Of a stretch of DNA of 64,000 nucleotides, positions 176-51,740 are shown piece by piece (position 1 is the first letter of the stretch; each line of letters begins with the position of its first letter). Source of the DNA: a virus; IMG/VR virus record IMGVR_UViG_3300047548_001818, positions 7,133 to 71,132 of that record. The stretch is one strand, 5' to 3'. The position numbers and the translations under genes were made by a program. Under the pieces are notes generated by a model, which saw only the letters and a list, made by a program, of their open reading frames with translations, made no database searches and was not told the origin of the DNA.

Positions 176-250
176 CCGGCGTTCGTATAATGGATAATAC
201 AAGGGTCTTCTAAGCCTTGAATATGGGTTCGATTCCTGTACGCCGGACCA
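176..250 (+). tRNA. tRNA-Arg (anticodon TCT)
   Basis: Acceptor ccggcgt/acgccgg. D stem gtat/atac. Anticodon loop cttctaa. T arm tgggttcgattcc. Discriminator A and CCA encoded. Confidence 0.8.
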
Positions 251-271
251 AATTATAACAAAAGGAAATAT

Positions 272-721: not shown

Positions 722-852
722 TGTCTGAAAAAGTTTACGTTTGTGTTGTTTGTGGTCATACACTATCCGAGGCTGATTGGTTAAGCTTACCAGACTCTGC
801 AAATTGTCCGGAGTGTGGTGTTTCTAAAAACGACTACGTTTTGATGGAATGA
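721..852 (+). CDS. rubredoxin-like CxxC-x-CxxC zinc/iron-ribbon mini-protein (44 aa)
   Basis: MSEKVYVCVVCGHTLSEADWLSLPDSANCPECGVSKNDYVLME. Start overlaps the rubrerythrin stop (TAATG) and the stop overlaps the next start (ATGA). Below the 60-aa cutoff of the ORF track. Confidence 0.45.
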   Translation: MSEKVYVCVVCGHTLSEADWLSLPDSANCPECGVSKNDYVLME

Positions 853-1367: not shown

Positions 1368-1431
1368 TTTCATAAGGTGAAACACCACGGAGTCTAAATA
1401 CAGTATAATAGGTGATTAACTGGAGACTCGT

Positions 1432-1938
1432 ATGAAATTGAGAATAGTTAATTGTCCTGATAAAGATTTCAAACCCTTCGTCGAGAGGGCTGTTCATTTT
1501 TACGGACAAAGCCTGATGAGTAAACGCCTGCTCGACAATATAAACCTCAAGGTCAAATTCAATCCAAAATTGAATGTTTGTGGCTTTGCTTCCGTTGAAG
1601 ATTATAACAACTCCGGAAAACCAAGAGAATTTTTAATTGAGATTCATTCTTGGATTGGTGCAAAAGAAATTTTCAAAACACTTGCACATGAAATGGTGCA
1701 TGTCAAACAGTTTGCATATATGGAGACCAACGATTCTTTGACACGTTGGAAAGGTGCTGTGGTAGATCCTGACAACTTGGATTACTACAAACACCCTTGG
1801 GAAATTGAAGCGTATGGAATGGACACCGGTCTGTTTACAAACTTTGCCATAAAAGAAAAGCTGTGGGAAATTTTTGAAGGCATTCAAGATCCAACAACAC
1901 CAATAGAAAAGAAAAAATTGGGTTGGAAACAAAAATAA
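1432..1938 (+). CDS. putative Zn-metallopeptidase-like protein (HExxH)
   Basis: LAHEMVHVKQ HExxH motif. No other recognisable domain. Confidence 0.3.
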   Translation: MKLRIVNCPDKDFKPFVERAVHFYGQSLMSKRLLDNINLKVKFNPKLNVCGFASVEDYNNSGKPREFLIEIHSWIGAKEIFKTLAHEMVHVKQFAYMETNDSLTRWKGAVVDPDNLDYYKHPWEIEAYGMDTGLFTNFAIKEKLWEIFEGIQDPTTPIEKKKLGWKQK

Positions 1939-1960
1939 TTTTAAAAATTTGAAAAACCAC

Positions 1961-1989
1961 TTGACAAGTTGCCTATATACTGTTAGAAT
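1961..1989 (+). promoter_or_regulatory. sigma70-like early promoter (TTGACA-17-TAGAAT)
   Basis: ttgaca agttgcctatatactgt tagaat, read directly from the sequence. Confidence 0.55.
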
Positions 1990-1995
1990 TTAATT

Positions 1996-2183
1996 TTTAT
2001 TGGAGAAATTCTTTGTTACTCATATCGAAACCCGTTCTGTTAACATGCGAGTATCGCACACCATTTATTGGTAGCGATAATCAGTCATGGGCGAACGGAA
2101 AAGGGGTATGTGGAACCTAAGAACATCTAAAAAGTAAATCAAAAGTTTCACAAACCCCAGACCTAAAAAATCTGGGGTTTTTT
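1996..2183 (+). ncRNA. candidate small non-coding RNA (promoter-to-terminator unit with no credible ORF)
   Basis: Lies between the 1961-1989 promoter and the 2153-2183 intrinsic terminator. Longest in-frame ORF is under 15 codons. The only track ORF here is on the opposite strand. Confidence 0.35.
2153..2183 (+). terminator. rho-independent terminator
   Basis: aaccccaga-cctaaaaaa-tctgggg followed by tttttt. Confidence 0.7.
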
Positions 2184-2206
2184 GTTGTAATCTTACAACA
2201 GATGTG

Positions 2207-2234
2207 TTGACAAAACAGAAAAATCTGATACAAT
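2207..2234 (+). promoter_or_regulatory. sigma70-like promoter (TTGACA-16-TACAAT) heading a tRNA segment
   Basis: ttgaca aaacagaaaaatctga tacaat. Confidence 0.55.
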
Positions 2235-2263
2235 ACACATCTTCGCTTGAGAAATCAGGCACA

Positions 2264-2291
2264 GTTCTTTAAAAAGTTAAGTGTAATTTGA
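2264..2291 (+). repeat. conserved tRNA leader repeat, copy A
   Basis: The 28-29 nt leader gttctttaaaaagttaagtgtaatttga is identical at 3210-3237. Both copies abut a tRNA 5' end and sit downstream of a TTGAGAAATCA motif. Confidence 0.6.
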
Positions 2292-2365
2292 TCCCGGATG
2301 GTGTAGTGGCAGCACAGGAGACTTTGACTCTCTTAGTATAAGTTCGATTCTTATTCCGGGTGCCA
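2292..2365 (+). tRNA. tRNA-Gln (anticodon TTG)
   Basis: Anticodon loop ctttgac flanked by ggaga/tctct. T arm ataag-ttcgatt-cttat. CCA encoded. Position 1-72 is a U-U mismatch. Confidence 0.7.
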
Positions 2366-2559
2366 TAAGTATAACAATTGAGTGTAGATGTTGAGAAAGC
2401 AAGAGCCTCGAAATTCTTGTGAGTTGGGACTAATTATCCTAGTAGCAAACAAGTAACAACTATCACTACGTACCTCTAACCCTGCCGGCTTTATATCAAG
2501 GGTAAAATGCTGTCGAATGAGGGAGGCGACAGACTTAGTTGTTATTCTTATGGCTTATT

Positions 2560-2649
2560 GGAAGCGTGGCAGAGTCCGGTTTATTGCAACAGTCTTGAAA
2601 ACTGTCGGCTCGAAAGGGTCCGTGAGTTCGAATCTCACCGCTTCCACCA
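2560..2649 (+). tRNA. tRNA-Ser (anticodon TGA), class II
   Basis: Acceptor ggaagcg/cgcttcc. Anticodon arm acagt-cttgaaa-actgt. Long variable arm. T arm gtgagttcgaatctcac. CCA encoded. Confidence 0.8.
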
Positions 2650-2654
2650 AACAC

Positions 2655-2746
2655 GGTGAAGTGCCCGAGAGGCCTAAGGGAGCGGTTTGCTAAACCGTCG
2701 ATTCATGAAAATGGGTCCGTGGGTTCGAATCCCACCTTCACCACCA
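2655..2746 (+). tRNA. tRNA-Ser (anticodon GCT), class II
   Basis: Acceptor ggtgaag/cttcacc. Anticodon arm gcggt-ttgctaa-accgt. Long variable arm. T arm gtgggttcgaatcccac. CCA encoded. Confidence 0.8.
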
Positions 2747-2767
2747 ATTGTAAATGAAAGGTAATAA

Positions 2768-2950
2768 ATGAAAACGAACAGTTCTTTCAAAATGTCTAAA
2801 TCGACAAAACGTTTGCTTGCAATGCTTCCTTATGCAGATCAAGAACAACGTATTGCATTTAAACATGCTATGATTGGTGCACAACATTCTCCAAATGTTG
2901 CACCGAAAACAAGCAAAGATAAAATGCTAAAAGAAACAGAAGCAGATTAA
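2768..2950 (+). CDS. small hypothetical protein (60 aa) inside the tRNA array
   Basis: ORF with AAAGG spacer-ATG. Basic. No known motif. Confidence 0.3.
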   Translation: MKTNSSFKMSKSTKRLLAMLPYADQEQRIAFKHAMIGAQHSPNVAPKTSKDKMLKETEAD

Positions 2951-2952
2951 AA

Positions 2953-3042
2953 CCCGCCGTAGCTCAGGGAGAGCAGGGGGTCTTATAAACCCTTAATCTA
3001 GATAAGGTCCAGGATGTGGTTCGACTCCACACGGCGGGACCA
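2953..3042 (+). tRNA. class II (long variable arm) tRNA with a UAU anticodon loop, identity uncertain
   Basis: Acceptor cccgccg/cggcggg perfect. D stem gctc/gagc. Anticodon arm ggggt-cttataa-accct. About 21-nt variable region. T arm tgtggttcgactccaca. A and CCA encoded. Confidence 0.5.
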
Positions 3043-3048
3043 AATAAT

Positions 3049-3126
3049 GTGGGTGTGGCGGAGTGGTCCAACGCAACTGTCTGCAAAACAGTAAAATCGT
3101 CAGTTCAAATCTGACCACCCACTCCA
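3049..3126 (+). tRNA. tRNA-Cys (anticodon GCA)
   Basis: Acceptor gtgggtg/cacccac. Anticodon arm actgt-ctgcaaa-acagt. T arm gtcagttcaaatctgac. U73 and CCA. Confidence 0.8.
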
Positions 3127-3152
3127 AATGTTGTTTTTCTACAACACACTGG

Positions 3153-3180
3153 TTGACAAAAAAGCCAGTTCATGTAGAAT
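3153..3180 (+). promoter_or_regulatory. sigma70-like promoter (TTGACA-16-TAGAAT) heading the next tRNA segment
   Basis: ttgaca aaaaagccagttcatg tagaat. Confidence 0.55.
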
Positions 3181-3209
3181 ACGTTTCATCGATTGAGAAA
3201 TCAATCATT

Positions 3210-3237
3210 GTTCTTTAAAAAGTTAAGTGTAATTTGA
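3210..3237 (+). repeat. conserved tRNA leader repeat, copy B
   Basis: Identical to 2264-2291. Preceded by gattgagaaatca. Confidence 0.6.
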
Positions 3238-3238
3238 T

Positions 3239-3314
3239 GCACCTATCGTCTAACGGTTAGGACGCTGCCCTTTCAAGGCGGAAACGAGGAGTTCGATTCT
3301 CCCTAGGTGTGCCA
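3239..3314 (+). tRNA. tRNA-Glu (anticodon TTC)
   Basis: D arm gtctaacggttaggac closely resembles E. coli tRNA-Glu. Anticodon arm ctgcc-ctttcaa-ggcgg. CCA encoded. Confidence 0.8.
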
Positions 3315-3451
3315 TTTCTTTTGTTGATTGTAAGCCACGGCAGAAACGTTCAATGCTGAGTAACTATGTACATAATTGCGGTAATTCTAGACAAACCCGC
3401 ATGAGCATAGCAAATAGTGCAGTCAACAAAACAAATGGTAAAAAATCAAAT

Positions 3452-3526
3452 GCGGGTGTAACTCAGAGGCAGAGTAACTGGCTTTTAACCAGTAAGTCGA
3501 GATTTCGAAATTCTCCACCCGTACCA
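3452..3526 (+). tRNA. tRNA-Lys (anticodon TTT)
   Basis: Acceptor gcgggtg/cacccgt. Anticodon arm actgg-cttttaa-ccagt. T loop ttcgaaa. CCA encoded. Confidence 0.8.
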
Positions 3527-3532
3527 AATTTT

Positions 3533-3625
3533 GGAGGTCTTGATGCTATGGCGTGTGCATCCCCGGACTGTAAATCCGGTCCCTCGTGGTAAACAATCTT
3601 GGTTCGACTCCAAGGACCTCCACCA
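3533..3625 (+). tRNA. tRNA-Tyr (anticodon GTA), class II
   Basis: Acceptor ggaggtc/gacctcc. D stem gatg/catc. Anticodon arm ccgga-ctgtaaa-tccgg. Long variable arm. T arm cttggttcgactccaag. CCA encoded. Confidence 0.75.
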
Positions 3626-3956
3626 CAAATACTAAGACAACACTTAGTAAGATGAGTAGATGAAAACCGACCCAGGGTGAGATCCTGGGCTTCAGCGGCG
3701 GGACTCTGATCCAAGACCTGACGAACGATAAGCAAAGTCGGTCCAGTAGGGGTAAGAAAAGTGTTGTCAGCGGAAAAAGCTGCCGAAGGACAGAAGTTAC
3801 AAACATACACATTTGATATCTATAGAATCGAGTGGCAATTTGTTTCTAACGCCGTGTATTCCTTCAAGAATTTTGGTCTCAAAGTGTTCATGGACGCACA
3901 TCAGCCTGTCACGCTGAAAGAAGGGGATCGTTACCCCTTGGGACCGCCAAGTTTAT

Positions 3957-4031
3957 TCCGGTGTAGCACAGAGGTAGTGCAGGTGACTGTTAATCACTTG
4001 GTCGTTGGTTCGATCCCAGCCACCGGAGCCA
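3957..4031 (+). tRNA. tRNA-Asn (anticodon GTT)
   Basis: Acceptor tccggtg/caccgga. D arm tagcacagaggtagtgca. Anticodon loop ctgttaa. T arm ttggttcgatcccag. CCA encoded. Confidence 0.85.
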
Positions 4032-4100
4032 CTTTTAGAATGCGTTCAGCAATTAAAAACTTTACTTGGAATAAAGCAAAAAAGCATTCTGTTTTATAAT

Positions 4101-4178
4101 GCCCCGGTGACGGAATTAGGTATACGTGTTGGTCTTAGAAACCAAATTTTAGGAGTTCGAGTCTCCTCTGGGGCACCA
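4101..4178 (+). tRNA. tRNA with anticodon TAG (Leu-type anticodon, A73) but a short class-I variable loop
   Basis: Acceptor gccccgg/ctggggc. Perfect anticodon arm ttggt-cttagaa-accaa. T arm ggagttcgagtctcc. Variable region only about 5-6 nt. CCA encoded. Confidence 0.55.
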
Positions 4179-4328
4179 CTTGACTCGCTTTGATTGATGG
4201 CGTATAATAAGATAAATAATCAATCATTTTTATGAAGCACATTGTTAGTTAAAGGGGTTGGCGTCCTGAAGCAGAAGCGGCCAGCAGCCAATTGGGTTGA
4301 TCTTCTGTCAGTGTGTTTCATAAAGATT

Positions 4329-4403
4329 GGGGGATTAGTGCTAATGGGAACACACTTGTTTTGCAAGCAAGAATTAGGAGTTCGATTCTCCTATCCTCCA
4401 CCA
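4329..4403 (+). tRNA. tRNA-Ala (anticodon TGC)
   Basis: Acceptor gggggat/atcctcc gives the G3-U70 Ala identity pair. Anticodon arm cttgt-tttgcaa-gcaag. T arm aggagttcgattctcct. CCA encoded. Confidence 0.8.
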
Positions 4404-4413
4404 AAAGATTTTT

Positions 4414-4489
4414 GCCCCTGAAGCATTGCTGGCGATGCAACTGATTTGTAACCAGAAGATAGGCGGTTCGATTCCGTCCGGGGGCACCA
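4414..4489 (+). tRNA. tRNA-Thr-like (anticodon TGT) with a weak anticodon stem
   Basis: Acceptor gcccctg/cgggggc. D stem gcat/atgc. Canonical loop tttgtaa but only 3 of 5 anticodon-stem pairs. T arm ggcggttcgattccgtc. CCA encoded. Confidence 0.5.
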
Positions 4490-4569
4490 AGTTTTATGCG
4501 GTCGTTTTAAACAACAATAGGGTCCACCTGTTGTCTACGTGGGAATCGTAGTGACCGCTCCAGTTTTAT

Positions 4570-4646
<77 letters not shown>

Positions 4647-4654
4647 GTTTTTAT

Positions 4655-4730
4655 TGCGGCGTAGGGAAATGGTATCCCACTGGCCTCATAAGCCAGAGGT
4701 AGTTGGTTCGATTCCAACCGTTCGCAACCA
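4655..4730 (+). tRNA. tRNA with CAT anticodon (Met/Ile2-type) and an imperfect acceptor stem
   Basis: Clean D arm ggga-aatggta-tccc. Anticodon arm ctggc-ctcataa-gccag. T arm gttggttcgattccaac. Acceptor pairs only 4-5 bp. Confidence 0.5.
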
Positions 4731-4734
4731 ATAA

Positions 4735-4809
4735 GGTTGTATGACGTAGACGGATGCGTACCGCCCTCATAAGGCTAGGAGGTTGGATCGTTACCAACTA
4801 CAACCACCA
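4735..4809 (+). tRNA. second CAT-anticodon tRNA-like gene with a non-canonical T loop
   Basis: Perfect 7-bp acceptor ggttgta/tacaacc. D stem acgt/gcgt. Loop ctcataa on a 3-bp anticodon stem. T stem gttgg/ccaac encloses atcgtta instead of TTCGAAT. CCA encoded. Confidence 0.45.
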
Positions 4810-4815
4810 AAATAT

Positions 4816-4892
4816 CCGTCCTTAGCTCAATGGATCAGAGCATTTGGCTACGAACCAAAAGGTTGGGGATTCGAATTCCTCAGGGCGGTCCA
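4816..4892 (+). tRNA. tRNA-Arg (anticodon ACG)
   Basis: Acceptor ccgtcct/agggcgg. D arm tagctcaatggatcagagca. Anticodon arm tttgg-ctacgaa-ccaaa. CCA encoded. Confidence 0.85.
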
Positions 4893-4897
4893 TATAT

Positions 4898-4971
4898 ACC
4901 CGGTTAGCTCAAAAGTAGAGCATACGACTGATAATCGTAAGACAGAGGAGCGTTACCTCTACTGGGTACCA
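4898..4971 (+). tRNA. tRNA-Ile (anticodon GAT) with a non-canonical T loop
   Basis: Acceptor acccggt/actgggt. D stem gctc/gagc. Anticodon arm tacga-ctgataa-tcgta. T stem agagg/cctct with loop agcgtta. CCA encoded. Confidence 0.7.
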
Positions 4972-5017
4972 ATTTTAGAATCGTTTCAGCAAACCAATAC
5001 TTGTCTTTGGATGACAA

Positions 5018-5063
5018 TTTGCCTTCTAAGCAAACTAAGTAGGTTCGATTCCTATAGTAAGCG
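5018..5063 (+). pseudogene. tRNA-like fragment (TCT anticodon arm plus canonical T arm, no resolvable acceptor or D arm)
   Basis: tttgc-cttctaa-gcaaa anticodon arm followed by gtagg-ttcgatt-cctat T arm. No complementary 5' acceptor strand found upstream. Confidence 0.3.
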
Positions 5064-5078
5064 ATTCTGTTGTACGTT

Positions 5079-5154
5079 ATCTCGGTAGCTCAACTGGCAG
5101 AGCAGCGGTCTCCAAAACCGAAGGTTGAGGGTTCGATTCCTTCCCGGGGTGCCA
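5079..5154 (+). tRNA. tRNA-Trp (anticodon CCA)
   Basis: Acceptor atctcgg/ccggggt. D arm tagctcaactggcagagca. Anticodon loop ctccaaa. T arm gagggttcgattccttc. CCA encoded. Confidence 0.8.
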
Positions 5155-5176
5155 ATTTTTTAAAAGGAGAAATAAC

Positions 5177-5383
5177 ATGAGTGATGGAGGAAAAGGTTCA
5201 AAGCCACGCCCATTCAGTGTTTCGAATGAAGAATATGCAAAACGTTGGGATGCTATTTTCGGAAAAGATTTAGAAAAGGATCTTCGTGAAAAAGCATTGC
5301 AACAAATGGTCGATGAGAATCAGAGGCTAGGGCTTTATGATGATCTAGACCAACAACTGAAGAGTAGTGGTAACTATAAATAA
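5177..5383 (+). CDS. small hypothetical protein (68 aa)
   Basis: ORF preceded by AAGGAG. No motif recognised. Confidence 0.4.
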   Translation: MSDGGKGSKPRPFSVSNEEYAKRWDAIFGKDLEKDLREKALQQMVDENQRLGLYDDLDQQLKSSGNYK

Positions 5384-5399
5384 CAGAAAGTGAGTTAAT

Positions 5400-5870
5400 A
5401 TGTTCAACAAAAAAATTAACTTGGAAGAAGTTAAAGCCTATGTAGAAAGTTGCGGTCCAGAAACCAAAATTTATCTGGGCTGCGATTCAGAAAAAGTTAA
5501 AGTGAACGGCGTATGGTATGCTGACTATATCATTGCTATTGTTGTTCATATTGACGGTAAGCATGGTTGTAAAATTTTTGGTGAAATTCAGCGTGAGCGA
5601 GATTTCGACCAACAGAAAAATAAACCTCGGATGCGGTTAATGACCGAGGTTTATAAAGTTGCTGAAATGTATGTTGCACTTGCTGCAACTATACCGAACG
5701 ATATTGAAGTACATCTTGACATTAACCCAGATATGATGCATAATTCAAGTATCGTTGTGAATGAAGCAATCGGTTATATCAAAGGTATGTGCAATGTTGT
5801 ACCAATGGTAAAACCAAAAGCTTTTGCAGCCTCTTATGCGGCTGATAGATTGAAAAGTCTTGCAGCTTAA
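5400..5870 (+). CDS. RNase H-like fold protein (YkuK/DUF458-like), embedded in the tRNA array
   Basis: Pattern IYLGCDS...YIIAIVVH...GCKIFGEI...DINPD recalls the DUF458 RNase-H-like family. Assigned from memory of that family, not by a search. Confidence 0.3.
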   Translation: MFNKKINLEEVKAYVESCGPETKIYLGCDSEKVKVNGVWYADYIIAIVVHIDGKHGCKIFGEIQRERDFDQQKNKPRMRLMTEVYKVAEMYVALAATIPNDIEVHLDINPDMMHNSSIVVNEAIGYIKGMCNVVPMVKPKAFAASYAADRLKSLAA

Positions 5871-6081
5871 ACAGACCCCGGTTTACACTTTTACGTTATA
5901 TAAAGTGGGTTATTGCTAAACCATACTGGCACGGTGAGACTATTCATAACCGCAAGTCCGGCGATATCGGAGCCTTGAGATACATAGTCGGGTAGAAGTG
6001 TAACTAACCTATACGTAAATAACAACGGACAGGGTAAAGACTCCTGATTGGGGCGAAAATGGGAACGTGGCCAATCACTTT

Positions 6082-6154
6082 GCGGGTATTCTCCTGGGAG
6101 AGGACTTAGCCTTCCAAGCTAAAGAAGCCGGTTCGAATCCGACTACCCGCTCCA
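6082..6154 (+). tRNA. tRNA-Gly (anticodon TCC)
   Basis: Acceptor gcgggta/tacccgc. Perfect anticodon arm ttagc-cttccaa-gctaa. T arm gccggttcgaatccgac. U73 and CCA. Confidence 0.8.
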
Positions 6155-6253
6155 TATAAAAACACATTACACGCCATGTAACTAGCGGTGGTAGCCTAGT
6201 GAAGGGTGCTTCTCCTACCGAGAAGTTTATAGTGTGTTTCTATATGGTTTAAT

Positions 6254-6327
6254 GCGGGTATGATGTAAAGGTAGCCTGTGACCTTGCCAAGGTTAGTGTG
6301 AGAGTTCGATTCTCTCTACCCGCTCCA
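6254..6327 (+). tRNA. tRNA-Gly (anticodon GCC)
   Basis: Same acceptor as the TCC Gly. Anticodon arm tgacc-ttgccaa-ggtta. T arm gagagttcgattctctc. CCA encoded. Confidence 0.7.
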
Positions 6328-6335
6328 AATTTTAT

Positions 6336-6411
6336 GGAGTTATTAGTGTAGTGGTCTGCACACCATGTTGTGACCGTGGTAGTATGAGTTCAATCCTCAT
6401 ATAACTCCCCA
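6336..6411 (+). tRNA. tRNA-His (anticodon GTG) with encoded G-1
   Basis: Extra 5' G pairs with C73. Acceptor gagttat/ataactc. D stem gtgt/gcac. Anticodon arm ccatg-ttgtgac-cgtgg. T arm atgagttcaatcctcat. CCA encoded. Confidence 0.85.
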
Positions 6412-6426
6412 ACGCAGAAAGAAAAT

Positions 6427-6666
6427 ATGAAATTTGTTCCTTTGAATAACAATGTTATTGTGAAACGTAAAGATCCTATTAAAACAACGTCCTCTGGTAT
6501 TGTTCTACAGACTTCTCTAGAACCTGACCGTGGCATCGTTGTTGCAACTTCCACAAACGATGTGGAAATTGGAAATGAATTGTTACTAAATTGGAACAAA
6601 GCATATAAGATTGACAATGAACACTACAAGATTCATGTCAGTGAAATCATTGCCATCTTCGAATAA
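6427..6666 (+). CDS. GroES-like co-chaperonin (Hsp10 family)
   Basis: MKFVPLNNNVIVKRKDPIKTTSSGIVL closely parallels the bacterial GroES N-terminus (MNIRPLHDRVIVKRKE..AGGIVL). 79 aa. Confidence 0.6.
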   Translation: MKFVPLNNNVIVKRKDPIKTTSSGIVLQTSLEPDRGIVVATSTNDVEIGNELLLNWNKAYKIDNEHYKIHVSEIIAIFE

Positions 6667-6672
6667 TTTTTT

Positions 6673-6748
6673 GCCTCGTTAACTCAGCGGTATGAGTAGC
6701 TCCCTTACAAGGAGAAGGTCGGCGGTTCGATCCCGTCACGAGGTACCA
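6673..6748 (+). tRNA. tRNA-Val (anticodon TAC)
   Basis: Acceptor gcctcgt/acgaggt. D stem actc/gagt. Anticodon loop cttacaa. T arm ggcggttcgatcccgtc. CCA encoded. Confidence 0.85.
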
Positions 6749-6752
6749 ATTT

Positions 6753-6826
6753 GCTCTCATAGGTAAATGGCATACCGCATCCTTGGTAAGGATGTATTCC
6801 AAGTTCGATTCTTGGTGGGAGCACCA
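6753..6826 (+). tRNA. tRNA-Thr (anticodon GGT)
   Basis: Acceptor gctctca/tgggagc. Anticodon arm catcc-ttggtaa-ggatg. T arm ccaagttcgattcttgg. CCA encoded. Confidence 0.85.
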
Positions 6827-6833
6827 AATTAAT

Positions 6834-6909
6834 GCAACTCTAGCTGATGTGGTCATAGCGGCGGTCTGAAGAACCGTTGAAAGAGGTTCGATTCCTCTGG
6901 GTTGCACCA
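6834..6909 (+). tRNA. tRNA-Phe (anticodon GAA)
   Basis: Acceptor gcaactc/gggttgc. Anticodon arm gcggt-ctgaaga-accgt. T arm agaggttcgattcctct. CCA encoded. Confidence 0.85.
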
Positions 6910-6915
6910 AAAAGC

Positions 6916-6943
6916 TTGACAAAAAACAGGAATACGCTATAAT
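6916..6943 (+). promoter_or_regulatory. near-consensus sigma70 promoter (TTGACA-16-TATAAT) inside the tRNA array
   Basis: ttgaca aaaaacaggaatacgc tataat. Confidence 0.65.
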
Positions 6944-6953
6944 ACATGTATTC

Positions 6954-7036
6954 GCGGCTGTGGTGGAACGGTAGACACAGGAGACTTAAAATCTCCCGCC
7001 TTGAGCGTGTGGGTTCGAATCCCACCAGCCGCACCA
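6954..7036 (+). tRNA. tRNA-Leu (anticodon TAA), class II
   Basis: Acceptor gcggctg/cagccgc. Anticodon arm ggaga-cttaaaa-tctcc. Long variable arm gccttgagcgtgt. T arm gtgggttcgaatcccac. A73 and CCA. Confidence 0.85.
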
Positions 7037-7042
7037 AATATT

Positions 7043-7119
7043 GCCCTTGTAACCCAATAGGTAGAGGTGGCAGACTCAAAATCTGTTTAGTGTCGGTTCG
7101 AATCTGACCAAGGGTACCA
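7043..7119 (+). tRNA. tRNA with anticodon CAA (Leu-type, A73) but a class-I short variable loop
   Basis: Acceptor gcccttg/caagggt. Anticodon arm gcaga-ctcaaaa-tctgt. 5-nt variable region. T arm gtcggttcgaatctgac. CCA encoded. Confidence 0.6.
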
Positions 7120-7187
7120 TTAAATTTACGCAGTAGTGGCTATGCGTGTAACAAAACGAAACCTCAGGTACATGAGAGTTGTGCCCA

Positions 7188-7277
7188 GGAAGATGCAGTA
7201 AGATGGGTCTTACGCCCGCCTGGAAAGCGGGAGGTTGGTGTTAGCTGGCCGGGGTTCGATTCCTCCTTCTTCCACCA
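7188..7277 (+). tRNA. tRNA-Ser (anticodon GGA), class II
   Basis: Acceptor ggaagat/ttcttcc. D stem gtaa/ttac. Anticodon arm cccgc-ctggaaa-gcggg. Long variable arm. T arm cggggttcgattcctcc. CCA encoded. Confidence 0.8.
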
Positions 7278-7610: not shown

Positions 7611-9032
7611 ATGAACACTTTTGTAGATGCAGTTATTAATCAAGAAGCCCGTACTGCCAATGGCATGAAGGCTCGCAAATCGACCGCAAATGCGGTCGTA
7701 GACTTGTTCTACAATGCAGGTGCAAGCCGTGGTAAAAATATTGTACCAGCTTTTGCTGCTGCTATGGCTGAAAACCGTGAATTGGCTCTCCGTGTGGCTG
7801 CATGGCTTCGTGATGCACGAGGCGGTGCTGGTGAGCGTCAATTGTTTCGTGACATTCTCCTTCATCTGGAAAAAACCGACACTGAAGCCGCTACGGCTCT
7901 GTTGGCCAAAGTTCCAGAACTTGGTCGTTGGGATGATCTTCTGGTCTTTAAAACTAAAGATATGAAGACCGTTGCATACTCCATGTTGGGTGATGCACTG
8001 CGAGCCAAAAATGGTTTGGCTGCAAAATGGACTCCTCGCCAAGGACCTATTGCGGCAGAAATTCGTGAATTCTTCGGAATGTCACCTAAATTCTACCGTA
8101 AATCTTTGGTCGAAATGACCAAAGTGGTTGAAACACAAATGTGTGCCAAAGATTGGGACAACATTAATTTCAGTCATGTACCTTCTGTGGCAACTGCCCG
8201 TTACAAAAAGGCCTTTAACCGTAATACTCCAAAGTATGCGGAATATGTGCAAGCACTTGTAAAAGGTGACAATCCAGAAGTGAAAGTAAACGCATCTGTG
8301 GCATATCCATATGATGTGTTGAAAGGTCGCATTAACAACTACGGTGTAAAATTTGACAAGACCGAATTGGACTTGATTCAAAAGCAATGGGAAGCCTTGC
8401 CAAACTATGTTGGTGATGCTAACATTCTACCTCTAGTTGACGTTTCTGGTTCTATGACCTGTCCCGCAGGTAAGAACACCAAGCTATCTTGCTTGGAAGT
8501 TGCGGTGTCTCTTGGTTTGTATCTTGCAGACAAGAACAAAGGAAAATTCAAGGATACTTTCTTGACTTTCTCTAGCAAGCCAGAACTGTTGCACCTGGTT
8601 GGCAACATTAACCAAAAGATTGACCAAATGGTTAAATCTAAATGGGAAATGGGTACCAATCTAAATGCAGCATTCAAGAAAATTCTTGATACTGCGGTGA
8701 AAGGTAATGTGCCTCAAGAAGAAATGCCAGCAATGGTATTGATTCTGTCTGATATGCAATTCAACGCTTGTGTTGTGCATGATGACAGTGCAATCCAAAT
8801 GATTGCACGTAAGTACCAAGAAGCAGGATACAAAATGCCAAAAGTAGTATTCTGGAACTTGAATGCTGCATATGGTAACGCACCTGTGAAGTTTGACAAG
8901 TCTGGTACTGCTCTGGTTTCTGGGTTCTCTCCAGCAGTAGTGAAGCCATTGCTGAGTGGAGACCTAGATAGCTTCACACCAGAGTCCGTGATGTTGAAGA
9001 CCATCATGGATGACCGTTATAAAGTGCTTTAA
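7611..9032 (+). CDS. vWA (MIDAS) domain protein with a helical N-terminal domain (DUF2828/TROVE-like)
   Basis: C-terminal half carries the D-x-S-G-S MIDAS motif (LPLVDVSGSMTCP) of von Willebrand A domains. AAAGGAGA RBS upstream. Terminator downstream. Confidence 0.5.
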   Translation: MNTFVDAVINQEARTANGMKARKSTANAVVDLFYNAGASRGKNIVPAFAAAMAENRELALRVAAWLRDARGGAGERQLFRDILLHLEKTDTEAATALLAKVPELGRWDDLLVFKTKDMKTVAYSMLGDALRAKNGLAAKWTPRQGPIAAEIREFFGMSPKFYRKSLVEMTKVVETQMCAKDWDNINFSHVPSVATARYKKAFNRNTPKYAEYVQALVKGDNPEVKVNASVAYPYDVLKGRINNYGVKFDKTELDLIQKQWEALPNYVGDANILPLVDVSGSMTCPAGKNTKLSCLEVAVSLGLYLADKNKGKFKDTFLTFSSKPELLHLVGNINQKIDQMVKSKWEMGTNLNAAFKKILDTAVKGNVPQEEMPAMVLILSDMQFNACVVHDDSAIQMIARKYQEAGYKMPKVVFWNLNAAYGNAPVKFDKSGTALVSGFSPAVVKPLLSGDLDSFTPESVMLKTIMDDRYKVL

Positions 9033-9037
9033 CGGTT

Positions 9038-9064
9038 ATGGAGACTCAATGGGTCTCCATTTTG
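9038..9064 (+). terminator. rho-independent terminator
   Basis: atggagac-tcaatg-ggtctccat followed by tttg. Confidence 0.55.
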
Positions 9065-9149
9065 AAACATATGGCACGACTAGAAGTGGATCCATCGTGG
9101 CTAGGCAGCCTTACTATGCATACCGTGTGTTTCAAAATGGAGATATAAA

Positions 9150-9524
9150 ATGAAAATTACTGAAGATCAGTTTCGATTTGAGTGGTTTTCCGGTACAGGA
9201 AAAGGTGGGCAACATCGGAACAAACATCAAAATTGTTGTCGTTGTATACATGAACCAACCGGAATAACTGCAAATGGAACATCTAGCAGAAGCCGTGATG
9301 ACAATAAAAGAAATGCTTTAATCGTCTGTAAAGCTAGAGTTGAAAGATATTTCCATAAAGACACCGAAAGATTTCTTGCAGGCAAAGAACGAATTAGAAC
9401 CTACCATGAACCAGACAATAGAGTTGTCGATCATGCTAGTGGTTTCTCTGACACATATCAGAATGTGGTAATCAAAGGCTTCATCGATGAAATGATTGAA
9501 GCCCGTGCAAAAGTTAAAAGGTAA
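9150..9524 (+). CDS. release-factor GGQ-domain protein (ArfB/peptidyl-tRNA hydrolase-like)
   Basis: FSGTGKGGQHRNKHQN contains the universally conserved GGQ motif of class I release factors and ArfB in the usual G-x-G-G-Q-H-x-N context. 124 aa. Basic C-terminal tail. Confidence 0.6.
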   Translation: MKITEDQFRFEWFSGTGKGGQHRNKHQNCCRCIHEPTGITANGTSSRSRDDNKRNALIVCKARVERYFHKDTERFLAGKERIRTYHEPDNRVVDHASGFSDTYQNVVIKGFIDEMIEARAKVKR

Positions 9525-9600
9525 GCGCCTGTGGCCAAGCGGTTAAGGCAGTGAACTCATAATTCATTGATCGGGGGTTCGAATCCCTCCGGGCGCACCA
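9525..9600 (+). tRNA. tRNA-Met (anticodon CAT)
   Basis: Starts one nt after the stop of the GGQ gene. Acceptor gcgcctg/cgggcgc. D arm gcc-aagcggttaa-ggc. Anticodon arm gtgaa-ctcataa-ttcat. T arm gggggttcgaatccctc. A73 and CCA. Confidence 0.8.
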
Positions 9601-9601
9601 C

Positions 9602-10069
9602 TCATTTTACGTAAGTTAAAAAACCCCAAATTAATATTGCGGATAAAGAAAGGCCTATCAGTACAGCAGCAATAATTTCAAGTGTCTCCTGTAGTTCTTT
9701 CCTTTTTCTTATTTTTAATTCCTTTTCTCTTCTCACTCTATGAGCCTCTTCGATTTCTAATGATCGTGAGCGTTCTTTAATTTTATTCCAAACATCAATT
9801 TTACCGGCTTGCATAAAGAGAAGTTGTAATTGCTTTTCAAATTCTTCGGCTTGATGTATAGCCATTTCTATTTCAATAGCGATAGACATGGAAGATTTTT
9901 TTTCATCCGCTTTTGATTCAGAAACGGCTTTCGTGGCCACAGATTTTGCATCAAAGTACTTACTTAATACTGGTCCAAGAGATGTAACATCATCGACAGT
10001 TTTTGATACTTTTTTGATTAACGCGACAGCACTCTGAATGCCGGCTAATGCTGTTACTGGATCTATCAT
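9602..10069 (-). CDS. tail-anchored coiled-coil membrane protein (155 aa)
   Basis: Predicted coiled coil with a C-terminal TM helix (IIAAVLIGLSLSAILIWGFLTYV). Start is immediately after the stop of the upstream gene (TAAATG), suggesting translational coupling. Confidence 0.5.
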   Translation of the reverse strand: MIDPVTALAGIQSAVALIKKVSKTVDDVTSLGPVLSKYFDAKSVATKAVSESKADEKKSSMSIAIEIEMAIHQAEEFEKQLQLLFMQAGKIDVWNKIKERSRSLEIEEAHRVRREKELKIRKRKELQETLEIIAAVLIGLSLSAILIWGFLTYVK

Positions 10070-10687
10070 TTACTTTGACAATGGATTATCCATCGCCTTC
10101 TGTATTTTATTATCTACATCTTTCATTAGAGAATCAACATCTTTTTTAACTTCTCTTTTCATCGTATCAACTTCACGGCTTATCTCTCTTCTAGCATCAA
10201 TAAGTTCTTTTCTGATACCATTCACTTCTGCTCTTGCTTTCTCCAAATCTTCACGAATATCTTTTCTAGCTTGACGCATTTCATTTTCTGTTTCACGTTG
10301 AGCTTGTTTAACTGAACGTTCAATTTGTTCTGTTACTGATTCGTTTCTTCGAATATCACTCTTCAAATCGTTTTTGATATCTCTGGTATAGTCTGAAGTT
10401 TTTTGGCTGTTTTCTTCAATCACAGCTAATCTTTTATCAAACTCCGATAAATCGGGTGCAACATATTCAGCAATCTTCTTCTTCATTCCAATATAGTCTT
10501 TGTATACTTCAAACGCACCATAAAGACCACCTAGTATAGAAGAAACAATCGTAAAAGCTACCATTAATTTAGCAGGTGTGAACTCATACCCACCAATGCT
10601 GATTATAGTATCTTTACTTGCATATTTTTTGACGGCGGCTTCCGCTTCGTCAATTTTTTTGTTTACGTCTTTAATTTGTTCTGTCAT
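10070..10687 (-). CDS. N-terminally anchored long coiled-coil membrane protein (205 aa)
   Basis: One TM helix (LMVAFTIVSSILGGLYGAF) followed by about 130 aa of heptad-rich charged sequence. AGGAA RBS. Confidence 0.5.
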   Translation of the reverse strand: MTEQIKDVNKKIDEAEAAVKKYASKDTIISIGGYEFTPAKLMVAFTIVSSILGGLYGAFEVYKDYIGMKKKIAEYVAPDLSEFDKRLAVIEENSQKTSDYTRDIKNDLKSDIRRNESVTEQIERSVKQAQRETENEMRQARKDIREDLEKARAEVNGIRKELIDARREISREVDTMKREVKKDVDSLMKDVDNKIQKAMDNPLSK

Positions 10688-10688
10688 T

Positions 10689-12608
10689 TTAGTTCCTGTA
10701 TTGTTGGTTGACCATTTGTTGATGTAATCTATCAGATGATAGTTGTCTTAATGCTCTAACATTATCTACAGTCACTTGATTTCTATAAATCTCCTCAGAT
10801 TTGTATAACTGACCATCCTTGAGTGCTAAACTGATATAAGCGTTAAATCCTGCTGGATTAACAGCAATAGATGATATGTCAACTCCCCTAGATAATTCAT
10901 TTGGTGTCACATTAGTTTTGACTGAAGAATCTCTTGATGAATTATTCGTTTGCAATTGAGGTATTTGTGTAGCATTGATTGTGTTCATCAGAGGACTCAC
11001 GCCCGTTAATTTTAACCCCTCAGTTTTAGGTAAATCTTCTTGTAATTTACTCACATCAAATTTGGTTTCGACATATGTTGTCTGCTGATTTGTGCTAAAT
11101 GTTGTAGCTTGTTCCGTGTAAGATGGTAAAGACAAAGTGTAAATATTTTCTTGTCTTGTTGATGTTGGTTGTGTAGACACTATTACAAGTTGTTTTGTTG
11201 GTTGCAATCCAAATTCTTGCATCTTATTTGCAGAATTTAAACCTAGATTAGTTGTTGATGCGTTGTTACTTTGAGATGGATTTGTGGCAAACATTGAAGC
11301 AGCTTGTGAAGCAGATTGACTTTGGTTAATTGTTGCCGCACTGATAGAAATACTATCTTTTTGTGTCTTGTCACTTATTGCTTGTGCTTGTTCGACCGCT
11401 TGTTGTACAGTGCTTGTTTCTAGATTACCAATGCGTGTCTGTTCATTTCTTACAATTGACAATATTTGACTCACTGAAGGTCCAGAAGTTTTTGCAGCAC
11501 TTCCAGATACGGTAACTTCACCAACTCTAGGTTGTGGGTTTGTAGCACTAGGTATTGGTGTTGAGCTAGAAGTAGAATTTGTTATAGTTACTGGTGCTGA
11601 AGCACTGGTGGTAGAAGTTGTTTGTGTTGGTTGTGTCTGTGTAACTTCTGTAGGAGTAGATGTAGAAGTGGGTGCTACTGTCGTTGTTGTCGGAGCTGCA
11701 AGAGGTTCTGAGGTTGTAAAAGTGTTGACAGTAGTAACTGTTTCTGTGGGAGTTGGAATTTTAGGCGTAGGTGGTGGAGTAGGTGAACTATTTACACCCA
11801 ATTCACATCTCTTGTACACGCCACCAAGTGGATCTTTACCCCAAGCTCCATTACTACAACTATAGGTACCTGCTTGCAACTCTTTATAATCCCACGTATC
11901 GTTGGCACCATATCGAATGACAGCAGCTTTTGATAATGTGAATTCGCCGTTTTCGTCAGCCACTTTATCCCAAGAAGAGAATGTTGGTAAAGGTGGTGGA
12001 GCTACTGTGTATTGTAATCTTACATCTATATTCCTGATTTGTGGTCCGTAGTATCCTGCCCAAAAACGATCATCTTTACCTGTAAAACTTACATTTAGAT
12101 TGCCTAAATTTGAAGGTGCATATTGTGTGCCAAAATTTTGGGTGCCAGACATTGTTGTCCAACCACTTGTAGTTTGTGGCATATTGTAATTATAGCTTTG
12201 AACAGTTGCACCTAAATTGTTCGTTACACTTATATTTCCAGTCAGTGTACCTCTACTGTAATCTTGATTGAAATATTGCCAAGAATATTTAAAACCAGAT
12301 ACCTGTATGCCTGTTCCCGCATTAGCGAGTGCAAAATTTATAGCAGTGTTGTAAGCCACCGTTTGTTGCGTATAACCAAACACAAAAGTTCCAGTGCTTG
12401 AATTATATGCTGGCATATTGCCACCAGACAAGCCTCCTCCACCAGTATTTAAATTTATAAATCCATTCCAATTGAATGGTGCGCCTGGCGGAGGAGGATT
12501 CAGTGTTGTATATACTATATTGTCAGTAAGTTCTTGACTTTTACTTGAAGAGGTTGTAAACAACCAAGCCAAGCAAACTACCAAGCCCAATATTTTTGTA
12601 AATTTCAT
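10689..12608 (-). CDS. secreted 639-aa protein with a Thr/Pro-rich mucin-like linker
   Basis: N-terminal signal peptide MKFTKILGLVVCLAWLFTTSSS. Gly/Asn/Thr-rich N-domain. About 90-aa T/P/S linker (TPPPTPKIPTPTETVTTV...). Gln/Ser/Thr-rich C-terminal half. Confidence 0.55.
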   Translation of the reverse strand: MKFTKILGLVVCLAWLFTTSSSKSQELTDNIVYTTLNPPPPGAPFNWNGFINLNTGGGGLSGGNMPAYNSSTGTFVFGYTQQTVAYNTAINFALANAGTGIQVSGFKYSWQYFNQDYSRGTLTGNISVTNNLGATVQSYNYNMPQTTSGWTTMSGTQNFGTQYAPSNLGNLNVSFTGKDDRFWAGYYGPQIRNIDVRLQYTVAPPPLPTFSSWDKVADENGEFTLSKAAVIRYGANDTWDYKELQAGTYSCSNGAWGKDPLGGVYKRCELGVNSSPTPPPTPKIPTPTETVTTVNTFTTSEPLAAPTTTTVAPTSTSTPTEVTQTQPTQTTSTTSASAPVTITNSTSSSTPIPSATNPQPRVGEVTVSGSAAKTSGPSVSQILSIVRNEQTRIGNLETSTVQQAVEQAQAISDKTQKDSISISAATINQSQSASQAASMFATNPSQSNNASTTNLGLNSANKMQEFGLQPTKQLVIVSTQPTSTRQENIYTLSLPSYTEQATTFSTNQQTTYVETKFDVSKLQEDLPKTEGLKLTGVSPLMNTINATQIPQLQTNNSSRDSSVKTNVTPNELSRGVDISSIAVNPAGFNAYISLALKDGQLYKSEEIYRNQVTVDNVRALRQLSSDRLHQQMVNQQYRN

Positions 12609-13677
12609 TTTTTACTTCCGGTGCGTGTTTAGGAATTTTGTCTGGATTTTGTTCCCAGAACATTTTCGCTTGTTCTCCTATCTTACCCTCATAAGGGCAA
12701 GGAGTACCAGCGGCCATCATAGCATCAAACACGCGACGATCTTGGCACATGGTTGCAACAGCGGCAACCTTCATACCCATATCGTACAGAGTTTTACTAA
12801 GCTTTAAACGTTCACAGTTTAAATCTCTCACTGTTCCACCAGAACTAACACCAAAAATTTGTGTTTGTACAGCACCACTAGATCCTGTTGTACATAAGTC
12901 ATTGTTTCCACCACTCATCATTGTTGGAGCAATTGCAGTAGGAGGTGGCTGAATAACCTTCTGAGTGATTTCCGAAGTATTCAAATTGTTGTTGGTCATT
13001 GAACCACTTTGAATATTCTGATTCACATTGTTATTTGTTGAAGAACTTGTACTTGTATTATTATTGTTGTTTACATTACTGCTTGTACTTGAACTCACAT
13101 TATTATTATTAAATGTCTGAGTACCAGAATTAATATTTGTATTCACGTTGTTATTGGTGCTGGTACTGGTATTATTTGTATTCAGTGTTTGTGTACCAGA
13201 ATTTACATTATAATTTGTATTACTGTTTGTACTTGTGCTTGTACTATTATTGTTGAATGTTTGAGTGCCCGAATTAATTTGATTCACGGTACTTGTGCTT
13301 GTGTTGACATTATTATTATTAAATGTCTGAGTACCAGAATTCACATTGTTATTGTTATATGTCATGGTACCTGAATTGACATTATTATTATTAAATGTCT
13401 GAGTACCAGAATTCACATTATTGTTATTGTTTGTATAAGTTACGGAACCACTCATAACATTATTGTTGTTATTTGTTATAGTTCCATTTGTTGTAACCGT
13501 ACTTGTACTAGTGCTAGTACTGTTAGTTGTGCTGGAGTTTGTAGTGTTTACTGTGCTGGTGCTAGTGGAATTATTATTAGTATCCACCAAAGTTGTCGAG
13601 TCATAGGTTGTTTGAGCAACACTAATTGATGTAATCATAGCAAAAAGCACCAAAAGCGGTGTCTTTTTGAATGACAT
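12541..13677 (-). CDS. secreted Asn/Ser/Thr-repeat protein with a Cys-containing C-terminal domain
   Basis: Start moved to MSFKKTPLLVLFAMITSISVA (signal peptide, AAGAGG RBS) rather than the longer track ORF. About 200 aa of degenerate NNNNVNSGTQTF repeats. Globular C-domain has 5 Cys. Confidence 0.5.
   Translation of the reverse strand: MSFKKTPLLVLFAMITSISVAQTTYDSTTLVDTNNNSTSTSTVNTTNSSTTNSTSTSTSTVTTNGTITNNNNNVMSGSVTYTNNNNNVNSGTQTFNNNNVNSGTMTYNNNNVNSGTQTFNNNNVNTSTSTVNQINSGTQTFNNNSTSTSTNSNTNYNVNSGTQTLNTNNTSTSTNNNVNTNINSGTQTFNNNNVSSSTSSNVNNNNNTSTSSSTNNNVNQNIQSGSMTNNNLNTSEITQKVIQPPPTAIAPTMMSGGNNDLCTTGSSGAVQTQIFGVSSGGTVRDLNCERLKLSKTLYDMGMKVAAVATMCQDRRVFDAMMAAGTPCPYEGKIGEQAKMFWEQNPDKIPKHAPEVKNEIYKNIGLGSLLGLVVYNLFK
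12990..13560 (-). repeat. degenerate DNA-level tandem repeats encoding the N/S/T repeat region
   Basis: Motif aatgtctgagtaccagaattcacattgtt recurs at about 60-75-bp spacing (for example 13111, 13321, 13381). Confidence 0.5.
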
Positions 13678-13704
13678 TTTTACCTCTTTCTTGCTATTTT
13701 TAGG

Positions 13705-13732
13705 TTGATATTTTCTTGGTTTATGATATAAT
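13705..13732 (+). promoter_or_regulatory. sigma70-like promoter (TTGATA-16-TATAAT) in the divergent intergenic region
   Basis: ttgata ttttcttggtttatga tataat. Lies between the minus-strand operon start (13677) and the plus-strand replication genes. Confidence 0.55.
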
Positions 13733-13765
13733 GGAGTCTTATTATTTATGTCCTGGAGAAATAAA

Positions 13766-35757: not shown

Positions 35758-35764
35758 TTTTATG

Positions 35765-36187: not shown

Positions 36188-36188
36188 T

Positions 36189-36428: not shown

Positions 36429-36429
36429 A

Positions 36430-36630
36430 ATGAAAAAATTAATTACACTCTTTCTATTAGTATCTTCTTCACTAGTTTTTTCAGCCGAGACAAAAAAAGT
36501 ATGCGTCGATGCTATAACTAATGATGGAAAACCAATCATCGATAAAAAAACAGGCAAACCAAAACAGGAATGCAAAGAAATGAAAGTTCACAAGAAATTG
36601 GAAGGAACAAAAGTTCCCGATAAAAAATGA
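36430..36630 (+). CDS. small secreted Lys-rich protein
   Basis: Signal peptide LITLFLLVSSSLVFSA. Confidence 0.4.
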   Translation: MKKLITLFLLVSSSLVFSAETKKVCVDAITNDGKPIIDKKTGKPKQECKEMKVHKKLEGTKVPDKK

Positions 36631-37067
36631 GCGCAGATAACACCGAGTACACTCAACTTAAAGTTGATGTTGGTGTGCTTAAAACTCAAATATCGATGAT
36701 AACCCAACTTTGTAATAAAATGGATACAGTTATCGAAAAACTGGCGGATAATCATGACCGTATGGTCAATCAAATTTACAATGATATGGATAAAACAGAA
36801 GACGACACGAATGCGAACATAAAAGAACTGCATTCCAGAATCACAACAGTAGATAGAAATTTGTGTGATAAGCTTGAGCTAACCGAACGTAGAATTATGG
36901 ATGAGATTAAAAGCTTAAGACAACAAATCACAGAGCACAACAAAAAAGAAGATACCGAAATAAAAAAAATCCTAGAGTGGAAATGGATGGCTGCCGGTGG
37001 TATAGTAGTCATCATATGGTTGATTTCTAACATAAAATTTGATATGATACTGAAGCTGTTCGGTTAA
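36627..37067 (+). CDS. coiled-coil protein with a C-terminal TM anchor
   Basis: Heptad-rich 146-aa ORF ending in a hydrophobic helix. Confidence 0.4.
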   Translation: MSADNTEYTQLKVDVGVLKTQISMITQLCNKMDTVIEKLADNHDRMVNQIYNDMDKTEDDTNANIKELHSRITTVDRNLCDKLELTERRIMDEIKSLRQQITEHNKKEDTEIKKILEWKWMAAGGIVVIIWLISNIKFDMILKLFG

Positions 37068-51720: not shown

Positions 51721-51740
51721 AAATCACTGCCAGCCCCAAC

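Follow-up and report, generated by a model that had tools for sequence, protein, structure and literature searches.

This work identifies, in the genome of a marine T4-like myophage, a block of four co-oriented genes, here called A, B, C and D, for which the best-supported statement is that they form a predicted late-expressed, virus-specific envelope module belonging functionally with the lysis and egress genes. The block occupies positions 9602-13677 on the minus strand of the window, which is the whole stretch of 64,000 nucleotides (nt) analysed here and corresponds to positions 7,133 to 71,132 of IMG/VR virus record IMGVR_UViG_3300047548_001818; the DNA polymerase encoded beside it has ~50% identity to cyanomyophage polymerases. 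The reading that we favour, and to which we grant somewhat less than an even chance, is that the cassette as a whole may act as a late, accessory lysis/egress complex, at the inner membrane and in the periplasm. It draws on the neighbourhoods of the cassette across independent phage lineages and four endolysin families, on a late promoter core, and on export signals and membrane anchors. It further draws on the size and layout of C, which are of the i-spanin type with an invariant C-terminal motif, on the overlap of the A and B genes, as seen in many spanin gene pairs, and on a tail-anchored gene in the phage's own lysis cluster that resembles, by eye, Mosig_199, the fourth cassette gene of Pelagibacter phage Mosig. 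An initial annotation of this DNA had noted four co-oriented minus-strand genes, and all four were confirmed; its interpretation was upheld as far as exported and membrane-anchored envelope proteins of unusual composition are concerned, while the virion-fibre option that it had also offered was not.

Four genes for exported and membrane-anchored proteins

The four genes, taken from the list of open reading frames (ORFs), and the features predicted within their products are the following (aa, amino acids; TM, transmembrane segment; CBM, carbohydrate-binding module).

12541-13677, minus strand: gene A, 378 aa, from the ATG at 13677
13612-13677, minus strand: predicted signal peptide of A, from the sequence read by eye and hydrophobicity
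12946-13611, minus strand: N/S/T-rich repeat linker of A
12622-12945, minus strand: 4-Cys domain of A
12547-12594, minus strand: short hydrophobic GxGxxxG tail of A
10689-12608, minus strand: gene B, 639 aa
12537-12608, minus strand: predicted signal peptide of B, from the sequence read by eye and hydrophobicity
11994-12521, minus strand: FBA/CBM-like beta-sandwich head of B
11799-11963, minus strand: small 2-Cys domain of B
11514-11795, minus strand: T/P/S linker of B, residues ~272-365
10692-10886, minus strand: conserved C-terminal region of B, which ends QQYRN
10070-10687, minus strand: gene C, 205 aa
10511-10567, minus strand: single TM of C, a hydrophobic 19-mer at residues 41-59
10073-10090, minus strand: conserved C-terminal DNPLSK of C
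9602-10069, minus strand: gene D, 155 aa
9605-9688, minus strand: C-terminal TM of D, hydrophobic residues 128-155

The starts of A and B have the n-region, h-region and small-residue pattern of signal peptides, called by eye and hydrophobicity only, and A consists of 20.6% N, 16.9% T and 12.7% S, which agrees with the earlier description of signal-peptide proteins of extreme composition. No lipobox Cys is present in the signal peptides of A, B and their homologues in eight phages, so that neither protein has the lipoprotein character of an o-spanin. The linker of A holds eight NSG[TS]xT[FYL]-type units in all, four of 12-13 aa in tandem (NNNN(N)V[NM]SG[TS]xT[FY]) and four further, spaced units of the SGTQT[FL] type, and its DNA at 13085-13464 has tandem periods of 36 nt and 72 nt. 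These repeats had been described before, together with a 5-Cys C-domain; the cysteines number four (262, 288, 311 and 327) and are invariant across homologues. The A Cys domain is of the disulfide type, with a fold absent among solved structures, and A matches one PHROG of unknown function. The likeness to TraN-type domains raised in the initial annotation fell away, as neither a TraN family match nor a shared fold was found. The repeats gave no Csg matches as curli subunits, and a Pfam search of 150 representatives for fusions of the A domain returned nothing informative on function.

The GxGxxxG (GIGxxLG) tail of A recurs in 52 of 83 homologues. The idea that it is an amphipathic lytic peptide like melittin was rejected, since the hydrophobic moment of the tail does not exceed that of shuffled sequences (melittin as control, p=0.0015); it is a short, uniformly hydrophobic anchor and not amphipathic. 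Genes A and B share 68 nt (12541-12608), read in different frames, and this one DNA segment codes for both the hydrophobic tail of A and the signal peptide of B.

In B, a beta-rich N-terminal part is followed by a long, S/T/Q/N-rich C-terminal half, and the T/P/S-rich stretch accords with the Thr/Pro linker previously noted in the 639-aa protein. Against the PDB, its small 2-Cys domain gave only a Sushi/CCP-like, non-significant match (E 0.2). C continues after its TM into a long K/E/D/R-rich region of the coiled-coil type, and D has a helical N-terminal domain with its only hydrophobic segment at the extreme C-terminus, that is, tail-anchored; the membrane anchoring of C and D, claimed earlier, is thus borne out by hydrophobic residues 41-59 and 128-155, respectively.

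A conserved, virus-specific module

Homologues were retrieved by tblastn against 50,697 phage records from marine and freshwater phages and one Ralstonia phage only; none was found in T4 or any coliphage, as expected from the earlier remark that T4 holds nothing like this. The A Cys domain occurs in Pelagibacter podophages HTVC115P, HTVC023P, HTVC202P, HTVC033P and Baldr, in Pelagibacter myophage Mosig, in Roseobacter phages, in freshwater viral genomes and in Ralstonia phage RSP15. Nearly all of these phages share one order, namely A, a secreted protein of 260-690 aa and a small coiled-coil protein with its TM near the N-terminus and NPL at the C-terminus; the products of the second, B-type gene begin with a jelly-roll-like head, continue into a long linker that is acidic or P/T-rich, and have related C-termini (..QY[KR] in the B family). 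With our own ORF calling and clustering of 80 A-bearing viral contigs, to which 10 reference loci were added, a same-strand C-family gene was found ~2.4 kb downstream of A in 63/90 loci; a window-type D follows in 19, and in 10 there is a DUF4337 protein, encoded by a fifth gene distinct from D. NP[LIM] stands within the last 8 residues of all 64 members of the C family, mostly as DNPLA[NG]K. C of the window is 43% identical to HTVC115P gp49, through which its relation to the short podophage versions runs transitively and not directly. Median identity to the window is 74% for the A Cys domain, 56% for C, 47% for the B C-terminus and 34% for the B head. On this comparative evidence A, B and C are inherited as one unit, and the block is a widespread, horizontally shared module.

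The A domain is abundant, with at least 8000 clusters at 90% identity and 1187 at 50%. A scan of cellular genomes, one for each of 185,579 species, found it on 31 contigs only, all from metagenome-assembled or single-amplified genomes (MAG/SAG) whose taxonomic assignments disagree with one another; single-cell genomes of Pelagibacteraceae and Alphaproteobacteria are among them, isolates are not. The A domain appears to be virus-only. The search with the B C-terminus in a large protein set gave only 9 close matches.

No curated family in Pfam, NCBIfam or PADLOC covers A-D, in line with the novelty that had been suspected; PHROG matches are limited to A and D (PHROG 32327 of unknown function for D, E 3e-11), and C gives only coiled-coil-type noise matches in Pfam, NCBIfam and PADLOC. 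The module is without a name, a Pfam family or a solved fold, and no description of it was found in the searchable literature. Because all tests of family membership failed except that of the B-head fold, we provisionally regard it as a new kind of system, the function of which is predicted only.

Two ORFs of Roseobacter phage CRP-810 (L005; 4669-4929 and 6273-6695) may be noted here: gp51, labelled 'lysozyme', is a C-family TM and coiled-coil protein ending KNPLGR, and a lipoprotein ORF of 86 aa, unannotated and lying just ahead of the A homologue, has a stretch that resembles, by eye, half of the A Cys-domain motif.

Predicted late expression

The cassette has its own divergent promoter region, as had been proposed: a 70-nt gap (13678-13747) separates A from the plus-strand DNA polymerase operon and holds an 11/12 sigma-70 match for that operon, while a candidate late promoter core faces A.

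13743..13749, minus strand: ATAAATA, candidate T4-type late promoter core, 66 nt upstream of the A start codon

The motif occurs in 10 copies in the window, both strands together, which is rare for such an AT-rich sequence, and five plus-strand copies (5376, 19345, 22003, 32973 and 36405) lie 21-36 nt upstream of gene starts; judged by the general consensus and spacing of T4 late promoters, these five are likely T4-type late promoters. Across the cassette loci, 41 of 75 have TAAATA between positions -110 and -15 ahead of A, against 6 in the antisense direction and a mean of 10.2 (maximum 21) in shuffled sequences, and so do 40 of the 52 loci with AT-rich upstream regions. From this conserved TAAATA we infer late transcription of the cassette, and the ATAAATA upstream of A is predicted to be its promoter.

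Association with lysis genes

In independent phage lineages, endolysin genes of four unrelated families (GH19, M15, amidase_2 and GH24) adjoin the cassette. The order in HTVC023P is A, B, gp47, C, with a peptidase M15 directly after C, and that in HTVC033P is a tail-anchored protein, amidase_2 and a TM protein, with A-B-C three genes further on. In freshwater podophage MW202481, A, B and C are followed by an SprT-like gene, a 165-aa holin-like TM protein (like Mosig_203 by eye, with no Pfam match of its own) and a GH24 lysozyme, and in Mosig A-B-C comes directly after a PF11351 holin. In 14 metagenomic loci the neighbour, 0-4 genes from the cassette, is a GH19 endolysin (Pfam, 38.4 bits), in at least four arrangements, among them i-spanin/o-spanin/GH19/A-B-C and B-C-D/i-spanin/o-spanin/GH19. 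Homologues of D without A-C keep similar company, being just upstream of a PF11351 holin and M15 in MW202879, and preceding a lysozyme gene by 2-3 genes in MW202710 and SAR116 phage HMO-2011.

The phage of the window has a lysis cluster of its own, as follows.

34163-34585, plus strand: Rz-like i-spanin, a TM and coiled-coil protein with a PHROG Rz-like match
34582-34848, plus strand: lipoprotein o-spanin, 88 aa, with lipobox LTVGC, a Pro-rich region and a PHROG spanin match
34848-35471, plus strand: GH19 endolysin with a PHROG endolysin match
36627..37067, plus strand: 146-aa tail-anchored coiled-coil protein at the end of the cluster, with weak PHROG matches of unknown function only

The GH19 of the window is 52% identical to the GH19 gene abutting the cassette in the 14 related loci, and the 146-aa protein is the one that resembles Mosig_199 in layout and C-terminal TM, by eye only. 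Small secreted and TM proteins are encoded between GH19 and the 146-aa protein within this cluster (34163-37067).

The cassette resembles two-component spanins (lambda Rz/Rz1) in having a membrane-anchored coiled-coil protein of 100-200 aa with a conserved C-terminal end, signal-peptide-exported partners, overlapping partner genes and a frequent place beside the endolysin. It differs from them in lacking a lipobox lipoprotein and any sequence or profile similarity, in having two large secreted partners, one of them lectin-headed, and in sharing its genome with a separate canonical spanin pair. The idea that the cassette is a spanin equivalent was weakened once the canonical Rz/Rz1-like pair and GH19 were found at 34.2-35.5 kb. 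Comparison of families by hhalign rejected a relation of C to the phage's own i-spanin (probability 0.4%), of D to Mosig_199 (<7%), of D to the PF11351-type holins (0.2%) and of D to its DUF4337 (PF14235) neighbours (0.8%), and D has no Pfam match to DUF4337 and no Pfam or PHROG holin match.

Several points weigh against an accessory lysis role. The canonical pair is already present, so that the cassette is not needed for textbook three-step lysis, and in the window it lies 21 kb from the endolysin; most loci, the window included, have no endolysin within their flanks, and as many of the GH19 loci come from related phages, the 14 are not independent. None of A-D has homology to spanins, holins or endolysins by Pfam or PHROG or, for C and D, by hhalign, with no Rz-like PHROG or Pfam match for A-D and no holin match for C or D, and A and B are not lipoproteins. 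The C TM is flanked by a mean of 1.5 K/R residues N-terminally and 2.8 C-terminally, a positive-inside count compatible with either orientation; lambda Rz, an N-in protein, has a similar flanking K/R bias. The cassette is dispensable, being missing from HTVC027P, which is closely related to HTVC023P and infects the same host, and the HTVC027P transcriptome (PMC12753301) is for that reason of no use for cassette timing. The head of B evolves far faster than A and C, which fits a variable ligand better than the invariant peptidoglycan. Finally, the borders of lysis cassettes are known insertion hot spots for unrelated accessory genes.

This last point leads to another possibility, to which we give about one chance in ten, that the block serves an unrelated late accessory function of the moron type in the envelope, such as adhesion, aggregation or envelope remodelling, with its lysis neighbours marking insertion hot spots only. 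The flanking genes vary greatly between loci, the N/S/T-rich repeats of A and the lectin head of B would suit adhesion, and there is a precedent (PMC9599517) in envelope modules of several genes that pass between the myophages and podophages of SAR11. The nearest precedent for the cassette is the curli module of this kind, the pelagiphage curli/type VIII secretion system (T8SS), which derives from Alphaproteobacteria and is common to SAR11 podophages and myophages (Wittmers et al. 2022, PMC9599517). Both are multigene, envelope-directed, shared by podophages and myophages and abundant in ocean viromes, but A-D lack CsgG, CsgF and curlin repeats in Pfam and have no cellular homologues beyond the inconsistent MAG/SAG contigs, and the published T8SS is a different gene set, so identity with it was rejected. 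The moron-type reading is further opposed by the absence of similarity to curli or secretion-system components and of an encoded route across the outer membrane, and by the enrichment of neighbours, which extends over unrelated types of phage and takes in holins, spanins and endolysins of four families.

The neighbourhoods also bear on a control of lysis timing, in which C would be holin-like or holin-binding, A and B periplasmic regulators and D a regulator on the cytoplasmic side; we rate this at roughly one chance in eight. T4 lysis inhibition involves holin T with the antiholins RI in the periplasm and RIII in the cytoplasm, and the cassette, likewise in a T4-like phage, resembles this set in combining a ~200-aa bitopic inner-membrane protein with secreted, periplasmic partners and one on the cytoplasmic side. 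The D homologues directly upstream of the PF11351 holin and the Mosig cassette directly after one point the same way. However, no homology to any holin or antiholin family was found, the sizes and folds of the partners are unrelated, known timing systems contain nothing comparable to a protein of 640 aa with a lectin head and a long linker, and the extramembrane coiled coil of C is very variable in length (107-222 aa).

As for other neighbours, Peptidase_S11 D-Ala-D-Ala carboxypeptidase (8 loci), DUF4337 (10 loci) and fatty-acid desaturase genes recur beside the cassette in related myophage contigs (L003, L004, L021, L026, L030, L077, L079 and others), and ClpX, ClpS, HSP20 and Clp protease genes are also found near it in such contigs.

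A fast-evolving, lectin-like head

The head of B is a sugar-binding-type beta-sandwich, with binding as its predicted activity, on a long disordered linker. It can be superimposed on the sugar-binding domain of Fbs1/Fbs2, the FBA fold, and B matches FBXO6 by phmmer over 58 residues (E 1.3e-3), with no Pfam match for B at E<=0.1, the FBA family included. Unlike Fbs1/Fbs2 and bacterial carbohydrate-binding modules, B is a secreted phage protein below Pfam detection, without an F-box. Its structural neighbours include receptor-binding modules of tailspikes and tail fibres, and one 55-aa stretch of B matches tail-fibre/adhesin proteins, among them Lactococcus phage adhesins. A single family takes in 76 of the 81 B heads, and the head is detectable in only 32/63 loci, being often unrecognisable between cassettes with 80-90% identical A and C. 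In near-syntenic relatives with DNA polymerases 79-81% identical, long B is replaced by a short B and three small secreted proteins. These short-B loci (L050, L055, L059, L061, L063, L067, L069 and L086) encode a short B of ~290 aa and small secreted proteins of ~165, 126 and 137 aa, which are without a Pfam or PDB match.

The fast evolution of the head and the dispensability of the module keep alive a second function, glycan masking or exclusion, to which we give perhaps one chance in four. Here the B head would bind the strain-specific polysaccharide of the host envelope or surface, as tail fibres do, and thereby block adsorption of other phages or, after lysis, coat the receptors on debris and so save the progeny, with A, C and D holding or delivering B. 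This would fit a head that is the fastest-evolving part of the cassette, its kinship with receptor-binding modules, the exchange of long for short B between close relatives with the same flanks, and the accessory, patchy distribution of the cassette, which is usual for exclusion genes. The cassette moreover abuts the DNA polymerase gene in the window and 13 related loci, much as the T4 exclusion gene imm adjoins gene 43, and T4 Imm/Sp exclusion likewise pairs membrane with periplasmic protein. Against this, the cassette is much larger than Imm/Sp, its promoter is of the late type, mistimed for excluding competitors though acceptable for masking debris, surface glycans are out of reach of a periplasmic protein before lysis, and a search for paralogues of the B head, in the 10 kb flanking each locus and in the rest of the window, gave none. 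This reading would also fail to explain why D and A-B-C are repeatedly linked to lysis genes in other phages. The superinfection exclusion suggested by the initial annotation is thus weakened by the conserved late-type motif upstream of A, and survives within this masking/exclusion alternative.

The fold and the short stretch that B shares with tail-fibre/adhesin proteins, together with the position of the cassette after tail-fibre genes in podophages, could also be taken to indicate fibres or some other structural part of the virion, or an adhesin of the conjugation type like TraN. This is very improbable, since the Sec signals and the disulfide-type domain put A and B outside the cytoplasm, in which virions of tailed phages assemble, C and D are membrane-anchored, and a search for TraN or gp37/38-like homology gave no match.

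Proposed mechanism and significance

Returning to the accessory lysis/egress complex, we propose, from sequence features, that a T4-type late promoter would drive all four proteins late in infection. The complex would be held in the inner membrane by C, D and the short hydrophobic tail of A, with the A Cys domain and B placed in the periplasm, where the fast-evolving lectin head of B, at the end of its long linker, may grip an envelope glycan, either the cell wall or a strain-specific polysaccharide, and the conserved C-termini of B and C may serve as docking points. Acting alongside the holin, endolysin and canonical spanins and not in their place, the complex could, after endolysin action, assist in detaching or rupturing the layer formed by wall and outer membrane. 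A specific spanin-like bridging mechanism with a glycan-binding arm is a more speculative proposal, for which we would allow no better than one chance in four.

It is conceivable, if on balance doubtful, at a little under one chance in three, that A-B-C(-D) represents a new class of phage envelope machinery, a fourth lysis/egress component beyond the holin, endolysin and spanin of phages of Gram-negative hosts. It would combine the virus-only disulfide fold of A, a coiled-coil inner-membrane protein C docking through its invariant NPL and a long-armed, fast-evolving lectin B, and would have spread horizontally among SAR11 and Roseobacter phages and marine T4-like myophages, which are among the most abundant phages of the ocean.

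If the lysis/egress role is true, the module would bear on the bursting of the dominant ocean heterotrophs and the release of their carbon, and would extend the holin-endolysin-spanin scheme. Phages are believed to shape the diversity of surface glycans in SAR11, and if glycan masking/exclusion is true, the cassette would be a major unrecognised player in the phage-phage and phage-host specificity of SAR11. In both cases the module provides a compact, tractable system of four proteins with a new fold, and a gene that can serve as a marker for a large set of marine phages.

Other features of the window

On its other side, D abuts a tRNA-Met gene on the plus strand (9525-9600), the 3' end of which meets the D stop codon on the opposite strand. 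A very large array of transfer RNA (tRNA) genes, all on the plus strand, extends over 176-7277, with 28 genes called by ARAGORN and 29 by Rfam, and three extra calls at 4656-4726, 4735-4806 and 4998-5060. Between this array and the cassette, positions 7611-9524 encode a vWA/DUF7788/DUF2828 (Ro60-type vWA-like) protein and a 124-aa RF-1-domain protein, and this gene pair also flanks the cassette in related contigs. An island of ~0.51 guanine-cytosine content at ~51500-54500, compared with ~0.36 for the genome, contains ORFs without a Pfam match and gave no Rfam match even at E<=1; it is possibly a foreign insert or a large unclassified RNA. Positions 58643-59437 encode a member of the SPFH/Band 7 family, the N-terminus of which is lipoprotein-like (MKRFALSALVAASVLATGC).

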